IMG/VR virus record: IMGVR_UViG_3300025196_000011
Location: 1 to 64,000 of that record
Source of the DNA: a virus
Lineage: Duplodnaviria > Caudoviricetes
Reading direction: 5' to 3' (one strand)
DNA length: 64,000 bases
Shown here: positions 28,184-40,222 of the stretch, piece by piece
Layout: each line of letters starts with the position of its first letter
Numbering within the stretch: the stretch's first letter is position 1
Position numbers and translations under genes: made by a program
Notes under the pieces: model-generated
Seen by the model: only the letters and a program-made list of their open reading frames with translations
Databases searched by the model: none
What the model was told of the DNA's origin: nothing

Positions 28184-28711
28184 CTATTTTGTATCGGTTA
28201 ATTGTGCCAATTGCGCTTGTAGTGTTTGCTTCTCAGCGGTTTTGGTGGCGATGACGGTATCAAGCTCTTTTGCGGTTTCAAAAAGCGCCGCCTTTTGCTG
28301 GGCTTTATTCATCGGCGGCTTGCCAGTAGTGGTAGGCCTTTTAACTTTCATCTTGGCGCGCTTGGCTTGAAATGCCTTTTGTCCGGTGTTGATGATATTG
28401 GCCACGCCATCGACGGACTGTTCAAACGAGGGTTTGTAGCTGTTATCAAAGTCACCGGTTAAGGGTACGTTTTTGCCGTTAATATCCATGCGGATTAAAT
28501 CAAGCGCGCCATCTTCTGCGGCTAAGCGTAAATAGATTTTGACGGTTTGGCCGTTTTCTAAAACCATATTGACCGGCCGAACGCTTGCGCCTGAGACGCG
28601 CTTCACTCTCTCAACCTCTAAGATGGCGATGGCCTGTTTGGTGCTTTTGGCCAAACGCTTAGAAAAGTCTTTGACCAGTGGGGTTTTTTCGGTAATGTCT
28701 GATAATTTCAT
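28184..28711 (-). CDS. hdf: Hdf-like (stand-alone DarA-N domain) protein
   Basis: RVKRVSGASVRPVNMVLENGQTV...MDINGKNVP...GQKAFQ plus C-terminal coiled coil, parallels recalled P1 Hdf. Confidence 0.7.
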   Translation of the reverse strand: MKLSDITEKTPLVKDFSKRLAKSTKQAIAILEVERVKRVSGASVRPVNMVLENGQTVKIYLRLAAEDGALDLIRMDINGKNVPLTGDFDNSYKPSFEQSVDGVANIINTGQKAFQAKRAKMKVKRPTTTGKPPMNKAQQKAALFETAKELDTVIATKTAEKQTLQAQLAQLTDTK

Positions 28712-28836: not shown

Positions 28837-29739
28837 TTAGATACCAAGTGATTTTGAATGACGTTTTAAAGCAGCGGCTTGCAAGCCTTTGGTATTGCCT
28901 TTGTAGATATTGGCACGAATACCTTTACCTAATGAGCGCATTTGTTTGCGAATGGCTGTACCGGTCGAGGCTTTACGGCGGGCTTTTTTAAGCGCCGCTT
29001 TTTGGCCAGCTTTCAAAAACGGCTTGCCGCTGATACGCTTATTAATCACGACGCGCTTGCCGTTACGAATCGCTTTAACGGCTTTATAAACCAAGGTTTT
29101 GCCGTTTACTTTTTTAACGGTTTTCTTACCAACGCGGCGCTTGGCGGCGGCATCAAACATATATTCTGTGTCATTATTCATGCTGTCGAATACTTCGCCC
29201 TCGCCCTCGTTGTCATCTTCATCACCGTAAGCAAAAGCGGCGGCGAACTCTTCAAGGTCATCGCCATCATCAGGCATGTTTTCAAGCACGGTTTCAGCGG
29301 CCAAGGTCACGGCGGCGTCTGCGACTTCGACGTCGCTATCGAATAAATCTTCAATCACGGCATCTTCAACGCCAAGGGTAGACAAGGCATCAGCAACATG
29401 CGCCGAAAAAACAGTTTTTACCTTATCATCAACGTCGCCGCCGTCGTACTCTTCGTCGTCGTCATCAGCAAACGCTTCAAGCATCAGCGAATCTAGCAAT
29501 TCACTCGGTAGCAGCGCGTCGCTGTCGTATTCCGTATCATTCAGCATAGCGGCAAGTGAAAAGGCCACCGATAGCGCTTGAATACGCATTTGGCTGGTCG
29601 CCACCAAGGCCATACGCTCGCTAATCGGGTCGGCGTTTAGCTTATCGACGGCTTCTTGTGGGCTTAGGGCGTCAAACTGGTTTTGCGTGCGCTCAAAATT
29701 GCGGTCATGGCGGCGTTGCATGGTTTTAGGGCTTAACAT
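28837..29739 (-). CDS. prohead core/scaffold-like protein
   Basis: Acidic body and Lys/Arg-rich C-terminus (AGQKAALKKARRKA) as in prohead core proteins; four FD[S/A] motifs. Confidence 0.5.
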   Translation of the reverse strand: MLSPKTMQRRHDRNFERTQNQFDALSPQEAVDKLNADPISERMALVATSQMRIQALSVAFSLAAMLNDTEYDSDALLPSELLDSLMLEAFADDDDEEYDGGDVDDKVKTVFSAHVADALSTLGVEDAVIEDLFDSDVEVADAAVTLAAETVLENMPDDGDDLEEFAAAFAYGDEDDNEGEGEVFDSMNNDTEYMFDAAAKRRVGKKTVKKVNGKTLVYKAVKAIRNGKRVVINKRISGKPFLKAGQKAALKKARRKASTGTAIRKQMRSLGKGIRANIYKGNTKGLQAAALKRHSKSLGI

Positions 29740-29810: not shown

Positions 29811-31187
29811 TTATTTGGTAACGGTGCTTTCAAAGTACACTTGGCGCGCGCAACCTTGCGGGCGGCGGCTCAATTTAACATCGGCTTTGGTGAACGGGTT
29901 ATCGGCGCGCGGCGTGATTTGTAGCGCGTAATAACGGCCGGCAAGCTCTGTTGACTGCGTAAGCAAGCCCGCGTCTGCGCAAGCGTCTAAGAACTTGGTA
30001 CAATCATCGGTTGCATCAGTGATAAAGCTACTCATGCCTTTCAATAAATGCTTTTTGACGATGGACACAACGACGTTTGCCGTGTAGGTTTCAATCTCTG
30101 ACGAATTGATAAGCTGTAGCGCGCTGGTGGTGCTGTCATATTGGGTTAAGACGTCGCCATAAATCCAGCGGTCGCCGCCCTCAAAGCGTTCGTTAATAAC
30201 GACGTTCACGCCGGCCTTGGCAAGTGCGTTTTGCGCCTCTTCATCAAGGGTTAGGCCGCCAAACTTTTCGGTATCACGAAACGATAACGGAAAGTCGTAG
30301 CCAGCAATCGGACGGTGAATAGGCGGGATACCGGACGCGGTTGTTAAGGCGTTACGCAACAACAATTGCGCCAAGTAGTCACCAACGCACGGCCGCCATT
30401 TTTTACGGGCAAGCACGGTCGTTGCATTGCTTGGACGTGACTTGTTTGGATTCCAAAATACCCATAAGCGGTGGTCGTCGATATTAATGGATTCAGTGAT
30501 AGCAACGGCCGCTTCCCAATTGTCGATATTGCCAATATCTAGCAGTACGTGACAATTGAGCTTGCCCATCGTTTCGGCCAAGGCTTCAACATGCGGCAAG
30601 CTGCCAATCTCACACGTTGCGATATAACGTGGACGGTCGCGCATATCGAGCAAGGCGTTTTTCATTTCAATCGGGGTTAAGTCGGTTACGCTGCTGGCTG
30701 GCACGTCGATAACGGCTTCTTGAATACGATAAGCGCCAAGGGCATTTAATGCGCCGGCCGTTTCAATGGCCGTCTTAATTGCCTGAGCGTCACTGGTTTT
30801 ATAACTTGTGACCACGCTTTCAAAAAAGTCATATTGGCTATCAAGCGCACCGTAAAAATCCAGCTTACTTGTCATATAACCAAAATTGTCGGCGTGGGCT
30901 TCTTCCAGTGCTTCAACGCCGCCGCCAGTGTATAAACGGCCTTTTAATTCCGTTACTTTACTGCCGTCGATTTTGTCTGCAAAAGTCACTTTAAAGACTA
31001 AGCTATTGAGCGGGTCACTTGCCGGCGCAACGGTTTTTTCATCAACCACCATCACGCGAGCGACGACGTTTGAATCAAAAGCGTAATGCGTGACAAGCTC
31101 AATGCTTGCCAGCGCGGCGGGGTTAGGCTCTGCGCTTAGCGTCATAGATGACGCAAGGATACTGAGGTATAACGTCTGTGGGGTCAT
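29811..31187 (-). CDS. tail sheath, large subunit lacking the N-terminal domain (~458 aa)
   Basis: Sheath C-terminus (DVKLSRRPQGCARQVYFESTV, IAGYDFP, GDVLTQ); start re-assigned to MTPQ at 31187 by the shared 5' cassette. Confidence 0.85.
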   Translation of the reverse strand: MTPQTLYLSILASSMTLSAEPNPAALASIELVTHYAFDSNVVARVMVVDEKTVAPASDPLNSLVFKVTFADKIDGSKVTELKGRLYTGGGVEALEEAHADNFGYMTSKLDFYGALDSQYDFFESVVTSYKTSDAQAIKTAIETAGALNALGAYRIQEAVIDVPASSVTDLTPIEMKNALLDMRDRPRYIATCEIGSLPHVEALAETMGKLNCHVLLDIGNIDNWEAAVAITESINIDDHRLWVFWNPNKSRPSNATTVLARKKWRPCVGDYLAQLLLRNALTTASGIPPIHRPIAGYDFPLSFRDTEKFGGLTLDEEAQNALAKAGVNVVINERFEGGDRWIYGDVLTQYDSTTSALQLINSSEIETYTANVVVSIVKKHLLKGMSSFITDATDDCTKFLDACADAGLLTQSTELAGRYYALQITPRADNPFTKADVKLSRRPQGCARQVYFESTVTK

Positions 31188-31194
31188 AATAAAA

Positions 31195-31260
31195 TGCCTA
31201 TACTGTGTTGGTATCAACTCAGTATAGGCAAGGTTTGCTTTAGGCCTTTAGGGGTGTTCC
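31195..31260 (-). promoter_or_regulatory. late promoter with overlapping 16-bp inverted repeat (sheath gene)
   Basis: GGAACAC-N27-TATACT; IR 31195-31210/31215-31230 with one mismatch. Confidence 0.75.
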
Positions 31261-31283
31261 ATCAAAGCGGGCGGCGTTAAAGC

Positions 31284-31991
31284 CTATGCCGGTGCTGGGG
31301 TTACTGTCATAGTAAAGTCTGTTTTAAAGATGATGGTATCGGTCGCTTTATCATAAACCGCTTGCGATAAGCCGTTTTCATCAAGCGTTGGCCACTTACC
31401 GACTAGCATTTCTTTGACCGCATCAAAAACATCGACGTGCAAGTCATGGTCGCCTCTAAATAAATCCTCTATTTCTCGCGCCGTGCATCGGTGTAGCGTT
31501 AGGGTTGCCGGTTGATAATTAATGCGCAAATTTGCATAATCAAAGTTTGCGTCATTAAATCCGGCATTGTCATCAATCAGCGCTTGCAACTCATTGACCG
31601 GCGTTGCGTCTACCAATTCCCGCCAGTTATACGGCAAGTCGCCGTTTGAGCCAAAAGACTTTAAAAACTCTTTTAACGTGTACTCATTAAAAGCGGCCAT
31701 TGCCATTGTTGTCGGCGTAGTAATTAAGCCTCCCCCATTGTGTGGCGGGTAAATATTTGTACCGATAATGGTGTACGGGTCACTACTTGATAAAAAGCTC
31801 TTAGAGTACCAATTCCAATTGCCGGAATCACCGTTGCTGTACCCCATAAAATACGGGAATAACAAAGAGAATACCGCTATTTGCTCATACTGAATTTCTG
31901 ACGAATCATCATTATCCACATCGATATAACTTTGAATAACGGGTAAGTCATCGTTAATTTGAACCTTTAAACATGCTGCTGCGCCTCTCAT
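31284..31991 (-). CDS. hypothetical protein coupled to sheath-N paralog A
   Basis: 235 aa; ATGA overlap and own GGAG/AGGT RBS. Confidence 0.7.
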   Translation of the reverse strand: MRGAAACLKVQINDDLPVIQSYIDVDNDDSSEIQYEQIAVFSLLFPYFMGYSNGDSGNWNWYSKSFLSSSDPYTIIGTNIYPPHNGGGLITTPTTMAMAAFNEYTLKEFLKSFGSNGDLPYNWRELVDATPVNELQALIDDNAGFNDANFDYANLRINYQPATLTLHRCTAREIEDLFRGDHDLHVDVFDAVKEMLVGKWPTLDENGLSQAVYDKATDTIIFKTDFTMTVTPAPA

Positions 31992-32350
31992 ACACCTATC
32001 TCCGTTCGTCTAAAAATAATCTCGGTTACTGGCGTCACTTTTAGATAGCTGACGACGCCTTTCTTAGCGGGCGCGCTACCTGTGCTGCCCGTTCGCAAAA
32101 TAGACAGCTCATTCACGCCATTTTTAAAGGCGTCCTCTACCGCAAGGTAGCTTGGGTTTGATGGGTCATGGCCTAGCAGCGCTTTGTAATTGCTGGCGGT
32201 CACTTTAAACGGTTTGTCTAAGCGGCCGCGCTTAAAACGGCCAGTGATAACGCCATTGGCCAATGACGGTAGCGGGGTCGTTTCTGACTTATCGATGACG
32301 TCTTGCCGCTGAACGCCTACCGCCTCGCCTAATATCTTAGTTTCAATCAT
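31988..32350 (-). CDS. sheath N-terminal-domain protein A (120 aa, minimal)
   Basis: LGEAVG...GRFKRG...VTASNYKALLG...YLAVEDAFKNG...LR is the sheath N-domain motif. Confidence 0.8.
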   Translation of the reverse strand: MIETKILGEAVGVQRQDVIDKSETTPLPSLANGVITGRFKRGRLDKPFKVTASNYKALLGHDPSNPSYLAVEDAFKNGVNELSILRTGSTGSAPAKKGVVSYLKVTPVTEIIFRRTEIGV

Positions 32351-32357
32351 AATAAAA

Positions 32358-32421
32358 GCCTATATTGAGTTTGGTTTACTCAGTATAGGCTTGGTCTTGC
32401 TTATAGGTTAGCGGGTGTTCC
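32358..32421 (-). promoter_or_regulatory. late promoter with 13-bp inverted repeat
   Basis: GGAACAC-N27-TATACT; IR 32358-32370/32378-32390. Confidence 0.75.
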
Positions 32422-32422
32422 T

Positions 32423-33670
32423 TTACGAATCAAAGTCTCCATACTCAAAAATTATGCCGTAATTACCAAACTCATTAATAGCTCTTCCTATTAGCATTTG
32501 TGTATTAGTAACACCAGCCATATTTATCGCAAAGTTAGGGCTTTTGCTAGTAGTGTGACTGATACTTAAATAACCGCCTGAGTTGGCGTGATTGATTTCA
32601 TCAAAATCAATCGGGTTTGACCAATCTGACCAGCCATTTTCATTTATCCGTATAGTCGCGCCTTTCACTTGGCTGTCATAAGCGCTGTCTGCAAAAAAAT
32701 TGCCAAAATTGAGGTTATTTTCTCCGCCATTGCCAATGTTTTCGGGGTTATATTCATAAAGCACGTCTGCGCGTGAGGTTTCCGCGTCTCTTGTTCTAAT
32801 CCTACGGCCATAAGTTGGCGTAATATCGTCTTGCGGCGGCGTCACCTCTTTAGCTAGCACCGCCCTTGCGCAACTCTTAAAAAGAACGGGGTCGCCATTA
32901 TCATTAGCTCCATCAACGCCGTAATACATATCTTCATTACGGGGCACTCCCTCAGTTGGGTAAACCGCAAGTGTGGTTTGTACGGGCGTTATTTTTTCTA
33001 CGCCTAAAAGGACGGGCGGGCTGTCAAAATCTACCGCTCCTAAGTCCATTAACATTAAGTCTCTAAGGTCATAAGGTGTGTTGTCAAAAACAACCTTGCC
33101 ATCTGACGCAATGCCGGAAAATGCCATAAAAGGCTGATTATTTTCATCATCAAACGACGGCGAGCCATCACCCATAGAAGAAAAATTTTGACATATAAAG
33201 CCCATTGAGCCAGCGTTGTAGTCCGTGCCTAGCAATACAAGGTCTAGCAAAAACTGCATAGGGTTCTCTTGATATTTCGGGTCTAAAGTCGTTAAGGTTT
33301 TACGCTGTCCGCCATTCAATGAGGTAGTAATATGGAAGTTTGGACTTTCAGCTAAACGGACTTTTACCTCGTTCGGCATACAGTTGCCGCCCGCGCTGCC
33401 CGTTTGGCCAACGCGCAAAACAAAAAGCTCGCTCACGCCGTTTTTAAAGGCGTCCTCAACGGCTAAATAACTGGGGTTAGATGGGTCATGGCCTAAAAGA
33501 CTGCGGTAATTAGCACTTGTCACGGTAAACGGCTTATCCATGCGCCCGCGTTTAAAGTGACCAGCGATAACGCCGTTATTGAGCGAGGGTAAAACCGTCG
33601 TTTCTGATTTATCAATCACGTCTTGGCGTTGTATGCCTACCGCATCGCCTAATATCTTAGTTTCAATCAT
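32423..33670 (-). CDS. sheath N-terminal-domain protein B with cargo (415 aa)
   Basis: Same 88-aa N-domain, a ~170-aa C...SCA domain, then a distinct AT-rich C-terminal domain. Confidence 0.8.
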   Translation of the reverse strand: MIETKILGDAVGIQRQDVIDKSETTVLPSLNNGVIAGHFKRGRMDKPFTVTSANYRSLLGHDPSNPSYLAVEDAFKNGVSELFVLRVGQTGSAGGNCMPNEVKVRLAESPNFHITTSLNGGQRKTLTTLDPKYQENPMQFLLDLVLLGTDYNAGSMGFICQNFSSMGDGSPSFDDENNQPFMAFSGIASDGKVVFDNTPYDLRDLMLMDLGAVDFDSPPVLLGVEKITPVQTTLAVYPTEGVPRNEDMYYGVDGANDNGDPVLFKSCARAVLAKEVTPPQDDITPTYGRRIRTRDAETSRADVLYEYNPENIGNGGENNLNFGNFFADSAYDSQVKGATIRINENGWSDWSNPIDFDEINHANSGGYLSISHTTSKSPNFAINMAGVTNTQMLIGRAINEFGNYGIIFEYGDFDS

Positions 33671-33679
33671 AATAAAAAA

Positions 33680-33743
33680 CCTATACTGAGTGGATTATCA
33701 CTCAGTATAGGCTTAGCTTGGCTTGTGATTTTAGCGGTGTTCC
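33680..33743 (-). promoter_or_regulatory. late promoter with perfect 13-bp inverted repeat
   Basis: GGAACAC-N27-TATACT; cctatactgagtg-gattat-cactcagtatagg. Confidence 0.78.
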
Positions 33744-33744
33744 A

Positions 33745-36210
33745 TTATTCCACGTTTGGCGGTTCTACTGGTTCTACTGGTTCTACTGGCTCTACTGGTT
33801 CGACTGGTGGTTCGACTGGTTCGCCGGCCGCGCTAATCACGTTCTCTTCAAAGCCGTCATTATCAATAAAAGTGACACGAACGCTTATAACCTTGCCGGT
33901 ATCGGCCTCGGTCAATAGATAACTGTCTGCCGTGCCAGCTTCAAGGTCATCAGCCAGCCATTGATAAGTAATATCGGTCGGTATGCCGTTGTCATCGGTA
34001 ATGGTGGCGGTTAGCGTTTCACCTACTACCATAAGGCCATTGATGACAACGCTTGCCGGCTTGTTGCTTGGTTGTACCGGCGCGGTCTGCTCACTGGTCA
34101 CAGCTTCTTCAAAGCCATCATTATCGATAAAGGCTGCATATACTGACACGACGCCGGCTTCGTCGGCCTCGGTTAGCGTATAGCTGTCTTGCGTGCTCAC
34201 CTCAATGTTATTAACCATCCATTTGTAAGTCGCTTCCATGGGTACGCCGTTGGCATCAGTGATAATAGCGGTTAAGGTTTCACCAACTCTTACAATACCG
34301 TCGATGGCCACGCTGGCGGGATAGTTTAACGGGCTTACCGGTGCGGTTTGCGCACTGGTCACGCTCTCATTAAAACCCTCGCCATCGACAAACATAACGC
34401 GCAATGATACCCGCCCGCCCTTGTCGCGCTCAGTTAGCGTATAACTGGCGGACATGCCAACATAAGATTTATTGACTAGCCATTGATGGCTAACGCTGCT
34501 AGATACGCCGTTGGCATCACTAATGGTTGCTGTCAATGTTTCGCCTACCTTGACCACGCCATTGATAGTGACGCTTGCCGGCTTGTTGAGCGCTTGAATG
34601 GGTGCGGTCGGTTCGCTGGTCACGTTCTCTTCAAAGCCGTCATTATCAATAAAAATAACCTGCAAATTAACGGTTTTACCCTTGTCGGCTTCGGTTAGCG
34701 TATAGCGGTCTTGCGTGCCAATTTCAACGCCGTTTGCCCGCCATTGATAGCTAATATCGCTCGATATGCCGTTGGCGTCAGTGACTACGGGTATCAAGGT
34801 TTCGCCTACTCGCGTGATACCAACAATAGCCACGCTGGCGACTTTATTTAAGGCTTTGACCGGTGCGGTCGGTTCGCTGGTCACGTTCTCTTCAAAGCCG
34901 TCATTATCGGTAAATATCACGCGCAACGTAACGGCCTTGCCTTTATCGGCCTCGGCCAATCTGTAGCGGCTGGCGGTAGCAACCAACGTGCCATCTACCA
35001 TCCAGCGATAAATAATATTGCTCGACACGCCATTATCATCGGTAATGGTTGCGGTCAAGGTTTCGCCTACTTTGGCTATTCCATTGATGACCACGCTTGC
35101 CGGCTTATTGAGCGCTTTTACAGGTTCGGTTGTGCTTAAGACGTCCTCGGTAAAGCCATCGTTATCGGTGAAGCTAACTTGCACCGATAGGCGCTTGCCC
35201 TTGTCTGTCTCGGTTGGCGTATAACTGCTTGTATTACCTACCTCAGTACCATCAGCGAGCCATTGATAAGTAACATCGCTTGGCACGCCGTTAGCATCGG
35301 CAATCACAGCGGTTAAACGCTCACCTACTCGAACGTCGCCATAAATGGCCACGCTGGCGGGATTATTGAGGGCGGTTACTGGCGTGCTGGTCGTGGCCGT
35401 TGCGCTCTCTTCAAAGCCGTCATTATCAATAAAGGTCACTTGCAATGAAATACGCTTGCCTTTGTCGCTATCGGTTAGTTTATACGTGCTCGCCGTGCCA
35501 ACTTCGACGCCATCGGCCAGCCATTGATAGCGGATATTACTTGGCACGCCGTTGGTATCGGTAATAGCATTGATTAAGGTTTGCCCTACTCTGAGCGTGC
35601 CTTTGATGACAACGCTTGCCGGCTTGTTGAGCGCTGCTACTGGCTCAGTAACATCACTTGCCGCCGATTCAATAAAGCCTTTTTTGTCAGTAAAGACAAC
35701 TTGCACCAATAGGCGCTTGCCCTTATCGGCCTCGGTTACTCTATACGTGCGAGCCGTGCCAACTTCGACGCCGTTTGCTATCCACTTATAGGCTATGTCT
35801 TTGGGTAGGCCGTCGCTATCACTGACCACAGCGGTTAATAGCTCGCCCACCGTGGCTATGCCGGTAATTAAAACGGCGGCCGGATTGTTAGGGTCGTTTG
35901 GTTCTACTGGTACTTCTATTGAGGGCTTGCCGGCCAATGATGGGTTGCCTATGCGCATCACCATGACTTCACTTGCACCGGCAATAAAAGCGTCATCAAC
36001 GACGGTGTAACTTGGATTAAATGGGTCGTCGCCTAGCAAGGCTTGATAGTTATTGGCGGTCACTTTAAACGGTTTGTCCATGCGGCCGCGCTTAAAACGG
36101 CCGACAATGACCGATTTAGCCCATGCTGGTATAACCCTATCGGCTGACCGGTCGATGACGTCTTGGCGCTGAATACCGGCCGCGTCGCCTAGTGTTTTGG
36201 TGTCAATCAT
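33745..36210 (-). CDS. sheath N-terminal-domain protein C with 8 Ig-like repeats (821 aa)
   Basis: Start re-assigned to MIDTKTLG (36210); N-domain, then eight ~87-aa VGETLTA...YQW...YTLTEAD.G...F.D..GF.E repeats. Confidence 0.85.
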   Translation of the reverse strand: MIDTKTLGDAAGIQRQDVIDRSADRVIPAWAKSVIVGRFKRGRMDKPFKVTANNYQALLGDDPFNPSYTVVDDAFIAGASEVMVMRIGNPSLAGKPSIEVPVEPNDPNNPAAVLITGIATVGELLTAVVSDSDGLPKDIAYKWIANGVEVGTARTYRVTEADKGKRLLVQVVFTDKKGFIESAASDVTEPVAALNKPASVVIKGTLRVGQTLINAITDTNGVPSNIRYQWLADGVEVGTASTYKLTDSDKGKRISLQVTFIDNDGFEESATATTSTPVTALNNPASVAIYGDVRVGERLTAVIADANGVPSDVTYQWLADGTEVGNTSSYTPTETDKGKRLSVQVSFTDNDGFTEDVLSTTEPVKALNKPASVVINGIAKVGETLTATITDDNGVSSNIIYRWMVDGTLVATASRYRLAEADKGKAVTLRVIFTDNDGFEENVTSEPTAPVKALNKVASVAIVGITRVGETLIPVVTDANGISSDISYQWRANGVEIGTQDRYTLTEADKGKTVNLQVIFIDNDGFEENVTSEPTAPIQALNKPASVTINGVVKVGETLTATISDANGVSSSVSHQWLVNKSYVGMSASYTLTERDKGGRVSLRVMFVDGEGFNESVTSAQTAPVSPLNYPASVAIDGIVRVGETLTAIITDANGVPMEATYKWMVNNIEVSTQDSYTLTEADEAGVVSVYAAFIDNDGFEEAVTSEQTAPVQPSNKPASVVINGLMVVGETLTATITDDNGIPTDITYQWLADDLEAGTADSYLLTEADTGKVISVRVTFIDNDGFEENVISAAGEPVEPPVEPVEPVEPVEPVEPPNVE
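33761..33823 (-). repeat. 9-bp coding tandem repeat (PVE)n
   Basis: ggttctact/ggttcgact units encoding PVEPPVEPVEPVEPVEPVEPP. Confidence 0.9.
33820..35890 (-). repeat. eight tandem ~87-codon Ig-like domain repeats
   Basis: Read directly from the translation; diverged DNA units of ~260 bp; boundaries approximate. Confidence 0.9.
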
Positions 36211-36219
36211 AATAAAAAA

Positions 36220-36283
36220 GCCCATACTGAGTAGTGATAGCTCAGTATAGGCCTGATTGGCTTGATTTCTTTGCTGGTGTTCC
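36220..36283 (-). promoter_or_regulatory. late promoter with 12-bp inverted repeat
   Basis: GGAACAC-N27-TATACT; IR 36220-36231/36241-36252. Confidence 0.75.
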
Positions 36284-36290
36284 GGCGCGA

Positions 36291-37517
36291 TTAAACGCCG
36301 TACCACTGCCCTATAGCGCACGAACTCACGCTCATGTTACCGCCAAACAGTAATTGCACAAGGTCGTTTGTACCGCCGTCGGTTAGCTCAAAATCAACGG
36401 TTGTACGCTTAATACCTAAAACGCCATCTTGGCCATCTGCATACGGCTGTTGGTCGGACGCGCCGTTGAGATACCCGCCACGGTTATTTACTTTAAACTG
36501 AAAAGGACTAGCCCCGCCGCCGCCTTGGCTTTGCATAACGCCAGTATGGCGCAAAAATTCATCAGCAAGGTAGTAGCTTGCCGGCGCGGTATAATTTACC
36601 CATTCGCCGCCATCAACGCGGTAACGGCCGTAAACATCGCCCGTCGGCTCGTTATATCCCTCTTGATATAAAATCGCTGCGCCGGTAGGTATACAGACAT
36701 TAGGGTCGATATATTTTTCTACCACCGCGCAACTATGCACTTCAATCGTATCGCCGCTTGCGCCCATTTTATAGAATAAATCAAAATCGGGGTCAACGTC
36801 CGGCGTTGGCTTAAAGACTAGCCAATTGTGTTCGGCGCGTGTGATATTTTTATTAGAGGTAACTGGCATCCCTAACCCCTCGTTACTAATTGGCGGGTAA
36901 TAAATGCGTGTAGATTTTAGGTCGTAATTACCGGTTGGTGTGTTCAACATACCATTGCTAGCAATACCGCAAAACGTATAATAATAAAGCGATTCTCGTT
37001 CATAACGCCCATCAATCATCTGACCGCCGCCAATCACTTCGGCGTCGATTTCATACTCATAATCAAGGAACGCTAACGATTTGCCATCTTGACCTAAATA
37101 AGCGCTGCGAGCAAAAGAAGCGTAATCATTGTCGTTTAAATCAAAGCTCTTAAACTCACCGCCGTTACGGCTAACGGTTATCCATTTGCTAAACTCACTA
37201 TCTGGACTTTCGCTGATTAAAGCATAGCTTGCAATACAAGCCACTCCCGTACCACCAACGCGCAAAATAGACAGCTCGTTTACGCCGTTTTTAAAGGCGT
37301 CCTCTACCGCAAGGTAGCTTGGGTTTGATGGGTCATAGCCTAGCAGCGCTTTATAGTTGCTAGCGGTCACTTTAAACGGCTTATCCATACGGCCGCGTTT
37401 AAAATGGCCGGTTATCACACCATTGGCCAATGACGGCAAAACGGTCGTTTCTGACTTATCGATGACGTCTTGCCGCTGGATACCTACGGCGGCGTCTAAT
37501 ATCTTGGTTTCAATCAT
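36291..37517 (-). CDS. sheath N-terminal-domain protein D with two C...SCA cargo domains (408 aa)
   Basis: N-domain nearly identical to paralog A; cargo partly homologous to that of paralog B. Confidence 0.8.
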   Translation of the reverse strand: MIETKILDAAVGIQRQDVIDKSETTVLPSLANGVITGHFKRGRMDKPFKVTASNYKALLGYDPSNPSYLAVEDAFKNGVNELSILRVGGTGVACIASYALISESPDSEFSKWITVSRNGGEFKSFDLNDNDYASFARSAYLGQDGKSLAFLDYEYEIDAEVIGGGQMIDGRYERESLYYYTFCGIASNGMLNTPTGNYDLKSTRIYYPPISNEGLGMPVTSNKNITRAEHNWLVFKPTPDVDPDFDLFYKMGASGDTIEVHSCAVVEKYIDPNVCIPTGAAILYQEGYNEPTGDVYGRYRVDGGEWVNYTAPASYYLADEFLRHTGVMQSQGGGGASPFQFKVNNRGGYLNGASDQQPYADGQDGVLGIKRTTVDFELTDGGTNDLVQLLFGGNMSVSSCAIGQWYGV

Positions 37518-38404: not shown

Positions 38405-40222
38405 TTAAAGCGCTGGTAGGTTAATCATTTCAAGAATCATGCACTGGTTGCGATAGCGCGGGATTGGGTTTACGTCTGCTGCCATACGTGAGTAGATAGC
38501 AATATCTTCTTCAAACGCATCAGCTTTTGACGTAAGTACCATTGGTGGTACGGCAATCATACCGACAAACTGCGCTTGCGCTGGCTGGATAGGGCGCGGC
38601 ACGATTAAGGCAAAAGCGGTCGTAAGGTCTGCGCTTTCATTGAATACGCCCATTGACGCCGGCACGTAATAAACGTTGGCATTGCTGCTCTTTAAGCGGC
38701 CGATACGGTAAACGCTATACTGGTCGCCAAACGCAACGCCGGTTTCTTCGTAGTTTTCGCCACCAAGGCCACTAAAGAACGCCGCGCCACGGTCTGAGAC
38801 ATACAAGTCATAGCCGCCAATCGCGGTATTAATCTCGGTTGATAAGCGAGTACGCGCAAGGCCAAGCGTGATATTAACGTTAGAAAACGCATCAGCAATC
38901 TTGGTCGGTGAAATACCATCTTTTTTAAAGTCAAACGTGATAACGCGGCCGGTTTTAGGGTCTTGGTTCGCGTAACACATATTAACGGCGGTGCGTAACA
39001 AGCGTGAGGTCTGCTCAAAGTAGTAACGCTGCATGGCCACGGTCTGAGCGGCTGCATACCAGTTAATACCAAGCTCATTGGATAGCTGGGTAATGGCATC
39101 GATGGTCGCGGTTGAGCGTGAACGGCTTGGGAACGCATAAATAGAATGATGGCTGAACTCAATGTCGGTTGATGGCTCAGTCAAAATCTTTTTGTTATTG
39201 CTGTCTTTACGCTCATAGTCAAAAATAAGCTCGACGGTAACGTCGCCCGCTTCGGGGGTTGCGCCATCAATGGTATCAAACGTTACGGTTACTTCATGCG
39301 TATCAAGGTCGGCAACGCCGCTCTTAAGAATGAATTTATCCGCGCCTAATACTAATGGCTCGGCTGATTGCAAAATGCTTTTGCCTTTGTTGGTTGGGTG
39401 ATTGCGGTTTTTGTCATTGGCAATCTCAACGCCTTTGACCATGACCACAACGCGGCCACCTAAGAACGGGGCAATTTGCGAGCTTTTATCAACTTTAAAG
39501 CGGGTTGTTTTGTTTGCGGCCACTTCCATCGTATAGGCTGCATGAGATTCTAAGACGAACTCGCCAGCACCAGCGCCCGCTTCCATCATTAAGACGTGAC
39601 GGTTTTCAAGGTATGGCATACCGGCTTTGTCGCCGTCCATTCTATCGCCAATGCGCATAACGCCCATGTTTGTACCGGCAACGGTTGTACCATAGACAAT
39701 AGGTAGCTCGTTACTACCGGTCGGGTTTGGCAACATAGTCACAAGCGGCAAGCTGTTAGAAATACCGTAAGCAATAACGACTTGCGTTGCTGCTGGTACA
39801 ACCGATAGCGCTTCATGGTGGCCAAGGGTTAGGCTGTCAAACGTGTTCTTTTCGTTCGGGTCTTGCTTTGAGCCACCGCCAAACGGGATAGCTGCTGTAG
39901 ACAGTGCTGCTGCCAGTGCGTAAGCGCTTGGCTCTTCACCGCCGTTACGGTATTTAAACTCTTCGATACCCTCAGCGATACCATCAAAAACCGGCTGCGG
40001 GTTTTGCTTGATGTAGTCGTTTGACAAGATACGCTGCAAGGATTCGGGCAACTGCAAAAAGGCGGCTTCGCGGCCGTCTGCATTGCTGGCAAGCATTGAA
40101 TCGAACGCGGCGACTTCATTGCCGGCGGTGTTTTGGTCGTCCAAAAAGCGCATGAAACGGCGCGTTGCTTGAACTTCTTTGTAGGCTGCTTCGTTTAAAG
40201 CATTGGCTAGCTGTTTATCCAT
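38405..40222 (-). CDS. major capsid protein precursor (P1 gp23-like)
   Basis: 605 aa; N-terminal delta-like region, then a segment parallel to recalled P1 gp23; own late promoter. Confidence 0.85.
   Translation of the reverse strand: MDKQLANALNEAAYKEVQATRRFMRFLDDQNTAGNEVAAFDSMLASNADGREAAFLQLPESLQRILSNDYIKQNPQPVFDGIAEGIEEFKYRNGGEEPSAYALAAALSTAAIPFGGGSKQDPNEKNTFDSLTLGHHEALSVVPAATQVVIAYGISNSLPLVTMLPNPTGSNELPIVYGTTVAGTNMGVMRIGDRMDGDKAGMPYLENRHVLMMEAGAGAGEFVLESHAAYTMEVAANKTTRFKVDKSSQIAPFLGGRVVVMVKGVEIANDKNRNHPTNKGKSILQSAEPLVLGADKFILKSGVADLDTHEVTVTFDTIDGATPEAGDVTVELIFDYERKDSNNKKILTEPSTDIEFSHHSIYAFPSRSRSTATIDAITQLSNELGINWYAAAQTVAMQRYYFEQTSRLLRTAVNMCYANQDPKTGRVITFDFKKDGISPTKIADAFSNVNITLGLARTRLSTEINTAIGGYDLYVSDRGAAFFSGLGGENYEETGVAFGDQYSVYRIGRLKSSNANVYYVPASMGVFNESADLTTAFALIVPRPIQPAQAQFVGMIAVPPMVLTSKADAFEEDIAIYSRMAADVNPIPRYRNQCMILEMINLPAL

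Follow-up and report, generated by a model that had tools for sequence, protein, structure and literature searches.

Introduction

Descriptions of phage tail sheaths portray them as homopolymers of a single protein, and a sheath built from two subunits is treated as peculiar to type VI secretion systems (T6SS). Here we describe the tail sheath locus in a stretch of DNA of 64,000 nucleotides (the window; positions 1 to 64,000 of IMG/VR virus record IMGVR_UViG_3300025196_000011). The source record is a 73-kb P1-like provirus of Psychrobacter which is rated complete. In this locus the sheath fold is divided between one gene for a large subunit and four genes that start with a common N-terminal module and continue into different C-terminal parts. 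An initial annotation, made from the letters of the window, had proposed that the sheath protomer is a heterodimer which is completed in trans by any of the four small proteins.

The closest described protein is the sheath protein gp22 of phage P1 (PDB entries 8JAJ, 8JAN, and 9AY3; PHROG 1036). It consists of an N-terminal arm (residues 3-34), domain II (35-99 and 243-425), domain III (100-242), which "extends outside the sheath," domain I (426-516) and a C-terminus (517-528; PMC10304247). The large protein of the window shows the same fold (Z ~20 over ~385 residues) with the same domain order. The locus has the same genomic place as the P1 gene, between counterparts of gp23 and gp21, and the module of the small proteins matches the N-terminus of gp22. 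However, gp22 is one polypeptide, whereas here its first ~97 residues correspond to a separate gene which exists in four versions with C-terminal cargo.

The T6SS sheath (TssB/TssC, also VipA/VipB) likewise consists of a small and a large subunit, and the small subunit provides an N-terminal linker strand and part of the core. VipA tolerates C-terminal fusions such as sfGFP. The model of the large protein described here aligned to VipB/TssC residues ~122-476 (Z ~13), and the two-subunit protomer resembles TssB/TssC in architecture only. The T6SS is a recyclable cytoplasmic organelle with a single TssB, whereas the present genes belong to a phage virion system with several alternative small subunits bearing display domains. 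Unlike in the T6SS, neither a T6SS gene context (Hcp, VgrG, TssE-M, ClpV) nor a ClpV-recognition domain is present and the locus lies between capsid and tail genes. No TssB/TssC family was reported for the module or the large protein in a Pfam scan. The system is TssB/TssC-like in its working and is not a member of the T6SS, and the fission of the phage sheath probably occurred independently of the T6SS fission.

Partly decorated tails are found in SPP1 (gp17.1/gp17.1*) and in lambda (the C-terminal immunoglobulin (Ig)-like domain of gpV), in which the tube is formed from plain and Ig/FN3-extended subunits. These are tube proteins of non-contractile tails and the variant arises by frameshift or is constitutive in one gene, whereas at the present locus exchangeable genes complete a split fold. 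Several sheath gene products within one sheath are found in the antifeeding prophage (AFP; Afp2-4) and the Photorhabdus virulence cassette (PVC; Pvc2-4; PMC10304247); each of these paralogs is full-length with a complete fold, in contrast to the complementary fragments found here. Strings of Ig-like domains on the virion surface are found in T4 Hoc-like decoration proteins, to which one of the small subunits shows a weak match through its predicted Ig-like repeats (PHROG 4069). Hoc is an accessory on the finished capsid, whereas in the present phage the Ig string would be joined covalently to a structural module that is essential to the tail. In the literature searched, the coverage of which was incomplete, no split phage sheath and no alternative cargo-bearing small subunits were found.

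The Sheath Fold Is Divided Between Two Kinds of Genes

The genes of the region are all located on the minus strand in the order capsid, a 246-amino acid (aa) protein (p246), four module genes, p235, sheath large subunit and a 300-aa protein. The module genes follow the p246 gene and start at positions 37517, 36210, 33670, and 32350. The sheath genes are:

29811..31187, minus strand: sheath large subunit, 458 aa (PHROG 1036 positions 112-531, E 2.6e-57)
31988..32350, minus strand: small subunit 1 (par1), 120 aa, 88-aa module plus 32-aa tail with SYLKV motif (module hidden Markov model (HMM), E 2.3e-50; PHROG 1036 positions 7-87)
32423..33670, minus strand: small subunit 2 (par2), 415 aa, module plus ~325-aa cargo without recognizable fold
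33745..36210, minus strand: small subunit 3 (par3), 821 aa, module followed by eight Ig-like repeats of ~87 aa each and by an (EPV)n tail
36291..37517, minus strand: small subunit 4 (par4), 408 aa, module plus ~320-aa cargo without recognizable fold

The four small subunits share an N-terminal module of 88 aa which aligns without gaps (pairwise identity 63-91%), and they diverge beyond residue ~90, as the initial annotation had described. In PHROG 1036 (531 positions) the modules matched positions 7-95 (E 1.7e-8 to 1.5e-6), complementary to the positions 112-531 covered by the 458-aa protein. Both this coverage and the module HMM bore out the earlier statement that the 458-aa sheath gene lacks the module. 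The module profile aligned to P1 gp22 residues 9-71 of PDB 8jaj (E 0.32). With hhalign, module positions 36-61 were placed on gp22 41-66 (E 4.7e-5) and large-subunit residues 394-450 on gp22 465-521. The N-terminal motif of gp22 that the initial annotation gave was correct, and the combined length of 88 and 458 aa is indeed close to that of gp22 (529 aa).

An AlphaFold2 (AF2) model of the large subunit was built on a homologue alignment of 66 rows, with a predicted local distance difference test score (pLDDT) of 87.9. The best match in the PDB was P1 gp22 [9ay3_A; Z 20.5, root mean square deviation (rmsd) 5.8, 385 aligned residues], in which model residues 1-447 correspond to chain residues 99-518. 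Further gp22 entries followed (8jan_m, Z 19.6; 8jaj_a, Z 19.3), so that the gp22 entries span Z 19.3-20.5 and rmsd 5.8-6.0 over 375-386 residues, with a sequence identity of 12-13%. The match starts at gp22 residue 97 or 99 and ends at 518. The sheath proteins T4 gp18, phi812, phiKZ, phiCD508, Lin1278, and DSY3957 were likewise matched only from their residues ~86-101 onward, and ~50 more sheath entries matched the model at Z >= 12.7. Neither phmmer nor profile searches with the large subunit matched any PDB sequence, and it was linked to the solved sheaths by structure comparison alone.

The model contains the conserved sheath core (domains I, II and the outer inserted domain) but has no N-terminal arm, and its domain II is without the first segment. 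The large protein did not model as a complete fold with an N-domain of its own, and no single polypeptide of the provirus carries the whole protomer. What is missing, namely the N-terminal handshake arm and the opening strands of domain II, is present on the separate genes. Given the alignment of the module to gp22 residues 9-71 and the published domains of gp22, the module represents the handshake arm (residues ~1-30) and the first segment of domain II (~30-88). As modeled, the large subunit is made up of domains III and I, the remaining part of domain II and a putative C-terminal arm. The alignment to gp22 extends to residue 518 of 529 with ~11 large-subunit residues (448-458) beyond it, and the conformation of this arm cannot be read from a monomer model. 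The start of the modeled large subunit coincides exactly with that of domain III, which places the break at the junction of domains II and III. At this junction the canonical chain heads outward, so C-terminal fusions to the small subunit should project from the surface of the tail.

Searching the whole 73-kb provirus revealed one sheath C-terminal part and exactly four copies of the module. No further sheath gene, either of the same type or of the common Pfam families, and no open reading frame (ORF) with both the module and the large part were found in the provirus.

For the Ig-bearing gene, the longest ORF (858 aa, GTG start at 36321) shares a short stretch with the end of the 408-aa gene, while the position of the promoter cassette described below and sequence conservation indicate 36210 as the actual start. 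The eight Ig-like repeats (residues 96-789, ~87 aa each) gave matches to Pfam PKD_3, IG_AIR9, and Ig_3 and to PHROG 4069 (Hoc-like), all of which are sums of weak repeats. The repeats were not detected at the DNA level by Tandem Repeats Finder. The cargos of small subunits 2 and 4 are weakly related to each other (26% identity, E 4e-4). Look-alikes of the cargo of the 408-aa paralog in the ESM Atlas all scored below 0.9 and were uninformative. The possibility that this cargo is a duplicate of domain III of the sheath was also considered and rejected, as no similarity was found.

Predicted Heterodimer and Naturally Fused Homologues

The 1:1 complex of the large subunit and the module was predicted with an interface score (ipSAE) of 0.84, compared to 0.00 for the best control; 58 out of 80 solved complexes and 2 out of 110 mismatched pairs came up to this mark. 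The contacts agreed between runs for at least 72%, and the pLDDT of the partner was at least 69. The predicted contacts involve module residues 30-88 and not residues 1-29; the lack of contacts of the latter would be expected of an arm that is meant for the neighboring protomer.

Homologues of the large subunit which start with the module in cis were found as well. P0104 and P0105 (545 and 544 aa) are such fused forms, and in P0197 (657 aa; L053:1427-3400) the module is followed by an insert of ~230 aa at the split site and then by the large part. P0197 shows that the split site accepts extra domains in cis. No free module genes were found at the loci with fused genes. In a tree of large subunits the fused forms make up one side of a single branch, and since the tree has no outgroup, fission and re-fusion cannot be distinguished. 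A match to Pfam E217_gp31_N was observed in the insert of P0197.

The complementarity within PHROG 1036, the comparison of the model to gp22, the fused homologues, the predicted complex and the conservation of the split described below support the proposal of the initial annotation, and the sheath is very probably a split heterodimer completed in trans.

The Split Is Conserved in Moraxellaceae

Homologues of the large subunit were found in Psychrobacter, Moraxella/Faucicola, and Acinetobacter. The sheath is split in all of ~20 distinct Moraxellaceae loci, which have one to four module genes each, so that the four of the window are the highest number seen. Three kinds of small subunits can be distinguished. 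Bare ones are 91-95 aa long, tailed ones (110-130 aa) have a SY[LIV]x[LIVM] motif and are in every case followed by a p235-family gene, and the others bear cargo. In addition to Ig repeats, the cargos in the relatives include leucine-rich repeats (LRR) of the DUF285/BspA type, fiber-like repeats and several domains without recognizable family. Two cargo-bearing copies of the window have orthologs: a small subunit 4 with 57% identical cargo is present in locus L006, and the Ig-bearing lineage is present in L014.

In some elements the small gene is located downstream of the large-subunit gene, among them the Acinetobacter phage ABMM1, in which the two genes encode proteins of 431 and 92 aa. ABMM1 has been cultured; it is a myovirus whose contractile tail is visible by electron microscopy, and both genes are given as "tail sheath proteins" by its authors, who do not remark on this. 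In other elements the two genes are separated by tens of kb. The complete phage-plasmid of A. oleivorans (82.5 kb) contains one large subunit and, according to a six-frame HMM scan, a single module ORF of 217 aa with a cargo of ~125 aa; the claim of an only copy applies to this plasmid alone, which was scanned as a whole record. In L039, a 74-kb metagenomic contig syntenic to ABMM1, a LRR-bearing copy of 538 aa occupies the slot of the bare 92-aa gene of ABMM1.

An exhaustive profile search yielded 312 representative clusters with the module, 264 of which had E <= 1e-10. Among the best 150 of the 312 clusters the module was always N-terminal and the proteins were 69-1106 aa long; 29 were short, 118 were cargo-bearing (46 similarity groups) and 1 was a fused sheath. 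The survey of relatives that the initial annotation had suggested thus revealed variation in both copy number and cargo.

Gain and Loss of Small-Subunit Genes

Turnover of the array was observed in metagenome contigs with flanks that are 90-99% identical to the window. A junction from cassette to cassette (32353/33675) removes exactly the par2 unit, and another junction lies within the module (32120/33441). In the Ig array 1302 nt are lost (34218/35521), corresponding to five of the eight repeats. The location of the junctions in repeated module and promoter sequences marks these sequences as recombination points for the gain and loss of cassettes.

In some near-identical metagenome strains the 3' end of the Ig gene is replaced by 1241 other letters. 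In two Acinetobacter phage-plasmids a serine recombinase of the resolvase/invertase type is located directly upstream of the small-subunit genes, beside ParA/Rep (L037:9242-9943, L041:8238-8942); it may rearrange the cargo genes, comparable to the action of Cin on the tail fibers of P1.

A Promoter-Hairpin Cassette Shared by the Large Subunit and Three Small Subunits

According to the initial annotation, a promoter-hairpin cassette is common to the sheath gene and to three of the four paralogs. This was correct: the cassette precedes the sheath gene, par1, par2, and par3 and is absent before the 408-aa gene. It consists of a GGAACACC box, ~26 nt, a TATACT -10 element embedded in an inverted repeat of 13 bp, a T-run and the ATG. 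The four copies are:

31195..31260, minus strand: cassette before the sheath large subunit (box 31253-31260; inverted repeat 31196-31229; hairpin -21.5 kcal/mol, z -7.8)
32356..32421, minus strand: cassette before small subunit 1 (hairpin -17.0 kcal/mol)
33677..33743, minus strand: cassette before small subunit 2 (hairpin -24.4 kcal/mol)
36218..36283, minus strand: cassette before small subunit 3 (hairpin -20.6 kcal/mol)

The GGAACACC box occurs 12 times in the window (9948, 19154, 25251, 28777, 31253, 32414, 33736, 36276, 40307, 46788, 51345, and 54880), always on the minus strand, compared to ~1 by chance. It always precedes genes, among them those for capsid, tail, and further late proteins, and a -10-like hexamer lies ~24-27 nt downstream of it. 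At the four cassettes, and thus at 4 of the 12 box sites, the TATACT hexamer lies in the left arm of the inverted repeat. The arm itself had eight matches with at most two mismatches (chance 0.57). Judged from its positions, the box is probably a late-promoter element of the phage, a counterpart of the Lpa-dependent late promoters of P1 with a different layout.

As RNA, the hairpins of the cassettes have folding energies of -17 to -24 kcal/mol (z -6.6 to -8.3). All Psychrobacter relatives keep the cassette of the large subunit, and compensatory changes are seen within its inner stem. The hairpin may terminate upstream transcripts, while transcripts from the embedded promoter would start in the loop; a terminating hairpin with an embedded promoter would make each gene an insulated unit. 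The gene par4 has no late promoter of its own and is located downstream of a GC-rich hairpin that follows p246.

The Coupled Gene p235

Small subunit 1 is followed by p235:

31284..31991, minus strand: p235, 235 aa (ATGA overlap with the small subunit 1 gene)

The overlap makes p235 translationally coupled to small subunit 1, and the frame upstream of its start is closed. No Pfam or PHROG match was found for p235. Nine family members were found in relatives. Genes of the family lie at 31284-31991 in the window and at L006:9207, L007:6607 and 8254, L008:9177, L016:8355 and 9152, L025:8171, and L033:5295. Each of them directly follows a small-subunit gene, and the sole exception is the second of the two tandem copies in L016. 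The small subunits that precede p235-family genes have the SY[LIV]x[LIVM] motif within their last ~30 residues, and a p235-family gene never follows the bare small subunits of 91-95 aa. The 120-aa paralog, for which the initial annotation had noted a 32-aa tail, is more than a form without cargo, as this tail contains the conserved motif and a coupled gene of the p235 family always comes after it. The association suggests that the tail of small subunit 1 is a docking strand for p235, which is a candidate for non-covalent cargo.

Two other origins of p235 were considered. A frameshifted remnant of the par2 or par4 cargo was rejected because no similarity was found. A programmed frameshift from par1 into p235 was rejected as well, as the frame is closed seven codons upstream, no slippery site is present and the spacing varies in relatives.

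Proposed Working of the Split Sheath and Alternative Explanations

We propose that domain III on the outside, domain I facing the tube, the greater part of domain II and the C-terminal arm would come from the large subunit, while module residues ~30-88 would complete its fold and residues ~1-30 would serve as the handshake arm that ties the subunits into the lattice. Late in infection each large subunit would take any small subunit at hand as its partner, and the tail would polymerize into a mosaic with a mixture of adhesin-like domains on display. From the genes and models we infer the pairing in vivo, the co-polymerization of the four versions and the role of the cargo. Taken as a whole, a two-gene sheath with exchangeable, decorated small subunits is in our judgment the best explanation and a probable one; that the different versions are displayed as a mosaic on one and the same tail has somewhat better than even chances.

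The proposal depends on the cargo-bearing copies being competent sheath partners. The module evolves under purifying selection (dN/dS, the ratio of nonsynonymous to synonymous substitution rates, is 0.06-0.23 between paralogs and orthologs). Identity within the arm is 0.59 for cargo-bearing and 0.60 for short copies, and identity within the core is 0.69 and 0.58, respectively. The arm matters only within the lattice, yet it appears equally well kept in cargo-bearing copies, which favors their competence. The Ig-bearing copy represents an old lineage common to the window and L014. The A. oleivorans plasmid and L039, in which the cargo-bearing copy is the case in point, favor competence of such copies as well, although they do not prove it. 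Together with the late promoters that three of the four small-subunit genes possess, these comparisons provide indirect support for the view that all four versions could be competent partners of the large subunit.

Several observations weigh against the proposal. Matches to gp22 at the sequence level are weak, and the homology is derived mainly from PHROG profiles and structure. Since intact sheaths have already been solved, the predicted complex may reflect likeness to these structures, in which case it indicates that the folds are complementary rather than that the proteins bind in the cell. The Ig lineage differs at predicted interface positions 69-81 (YTVVDDAFIAGASE vs. YLAVEDAFKNGVNE), so that affinity may differ. 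Most genomes retain at least one short copy, which fits a sheath whose bulk is built from short subunits only. A small subunit of 821 or ~410 aa at full occupancy would result in a larger protomer than any known to us, and steric limits might bar large copies from most positions of the lattice. Finally, the A. oleivorans element with only a cargo-bearing copy is a putative phage.

These points lead to an alternative which we consider rather unlikely but which deserves attention, namely that only short subunits (here the 120-aa protein) build the sheath and that the cargo-bearing copies occupy rare or special sites, such as a ring adjacent to the baseplate or the neck, as anchored fibers or adhesins. 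Nearly every locus that is fully seen keeps one short copy of 91-130 aa, the steric load speaks against full occupancy by subunits of 400-800 aa, and the terminal sheath rings of P1 have altered conformations and special partners (PMC10304247). However, the complete A. oleivorans element has a cargo-bearing copy alone, the LRR-bearing copy of L039 sits in the slot of the bare gene of ABMM1, cargo-bearing copies use the late promoter cassette of the large subunit, and neither their arm nor their interface is relaxed. The cargo-bearing paralogs might also not be parts of the virion at all, being either by-products of recombination between repeats of the promoter and the module or soluble regulators, chaperones or decoys which bind the free large subunit and control assembly or interfere with related phages. 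The recombinational instability of the array and the cargos without recognizable family would fit such roles, but the ORFs are intact, the module is under strong purifying selection, orthologous lineages are old (the Ig copy of the window and L014) and cargo is present in 118 of the best 150 of the 312 clusters. Furthermore, the cargos that can be recognized are of extracellular adhesion type (Ig-like repeats, BspA/DUF285 LRR, fiber repeats) and the late promoters are shared with capsid and tail genes, and we consider this explanation improbable.

It is still far less probable that the proteins themselves are not split, whether the apparent split is due to an error of sequencing or assembly or to a pseudogene, or the parts are rejoined by frameshifting, splicing or a split intein. 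Nothing was found in favor of this explanation, which was considered only since artifacts are frequent among split genes. The split is found in ~20 independent loci from isolates, metagenome-assembled genomes, plasmids and a cultured phage. The large subunit possesses a promoter and a start of its own, and in some elements the pieces are 1-35 kb apart or in reversed order. The bare small subunits of 91-93 aa contain no intein blocks, and neither a slippery site nor an open frame joins par1 to the next gene. Returning to the two-gene sheath, its extension to the whole family is evenly balanced in our estimate: in Moraxellaceae phages and phage-plasmids the split sheath would be a display scaffold whose exchangeable cargo, including docked p235, coats the contractile tail and changes the adherence of the virion, whose cassettes recombine and which represents a second, independent origin of a two-subunit sheath, with its break at the topological point that also separates TssB from TssC.

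Implications for Sheath Evolution and Virion Display

A conserved and functional fission at the equivalent point would provide a second natural case from which to learn how and why sheaths split. If the proposal is true, exchangeable subunits (~46 cargo groups among the best 150 of the 312 clusters) vary the virion surface while the contractile core is left untouched, and this variation could affect adsorption, host range and adherence to surfaces. For engineering, the small subunit would offer a ready-made, tolerant fusion site for the display of proteins on the tail. With respect to annotation, a role is suggested for PHROG 14345, 5283, and 24956 and for hundreds of proteins now listed as "hypothetical" or "BspA family surface" proteins.

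Neighboring Genes

The sheath locus is flanked by the following genes:

38405..40222, minus strand: major capsid protein upstream of the array, counterpart of P1 gp23 (PHROG 1014, E 8e-78; weak BLASTP match to P1 gp23)
28837..29739, minus strand: counterpart of P1 gp21 downstream of the sheath gene, 300 aa (PHROG 1053; C-terminal match to P1 gp21, E 3e-9)

The P1 gene order 23-22-21 is thus retained across the capsid, sheath and gp21 counterparts, and the sheath locus has the gene context of a myovirus tail. A megablast search of the locus against phages gave no match. Beside the gp21 counterpart, a 175-aa protein (28184-28711) matches Hdf-like antirestriction proteins (PHROG 1620) and DarA_N. 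At the corresponding neighbor position in L050 and L039, the gene encodes a DarA_N protein of 1300 aa.

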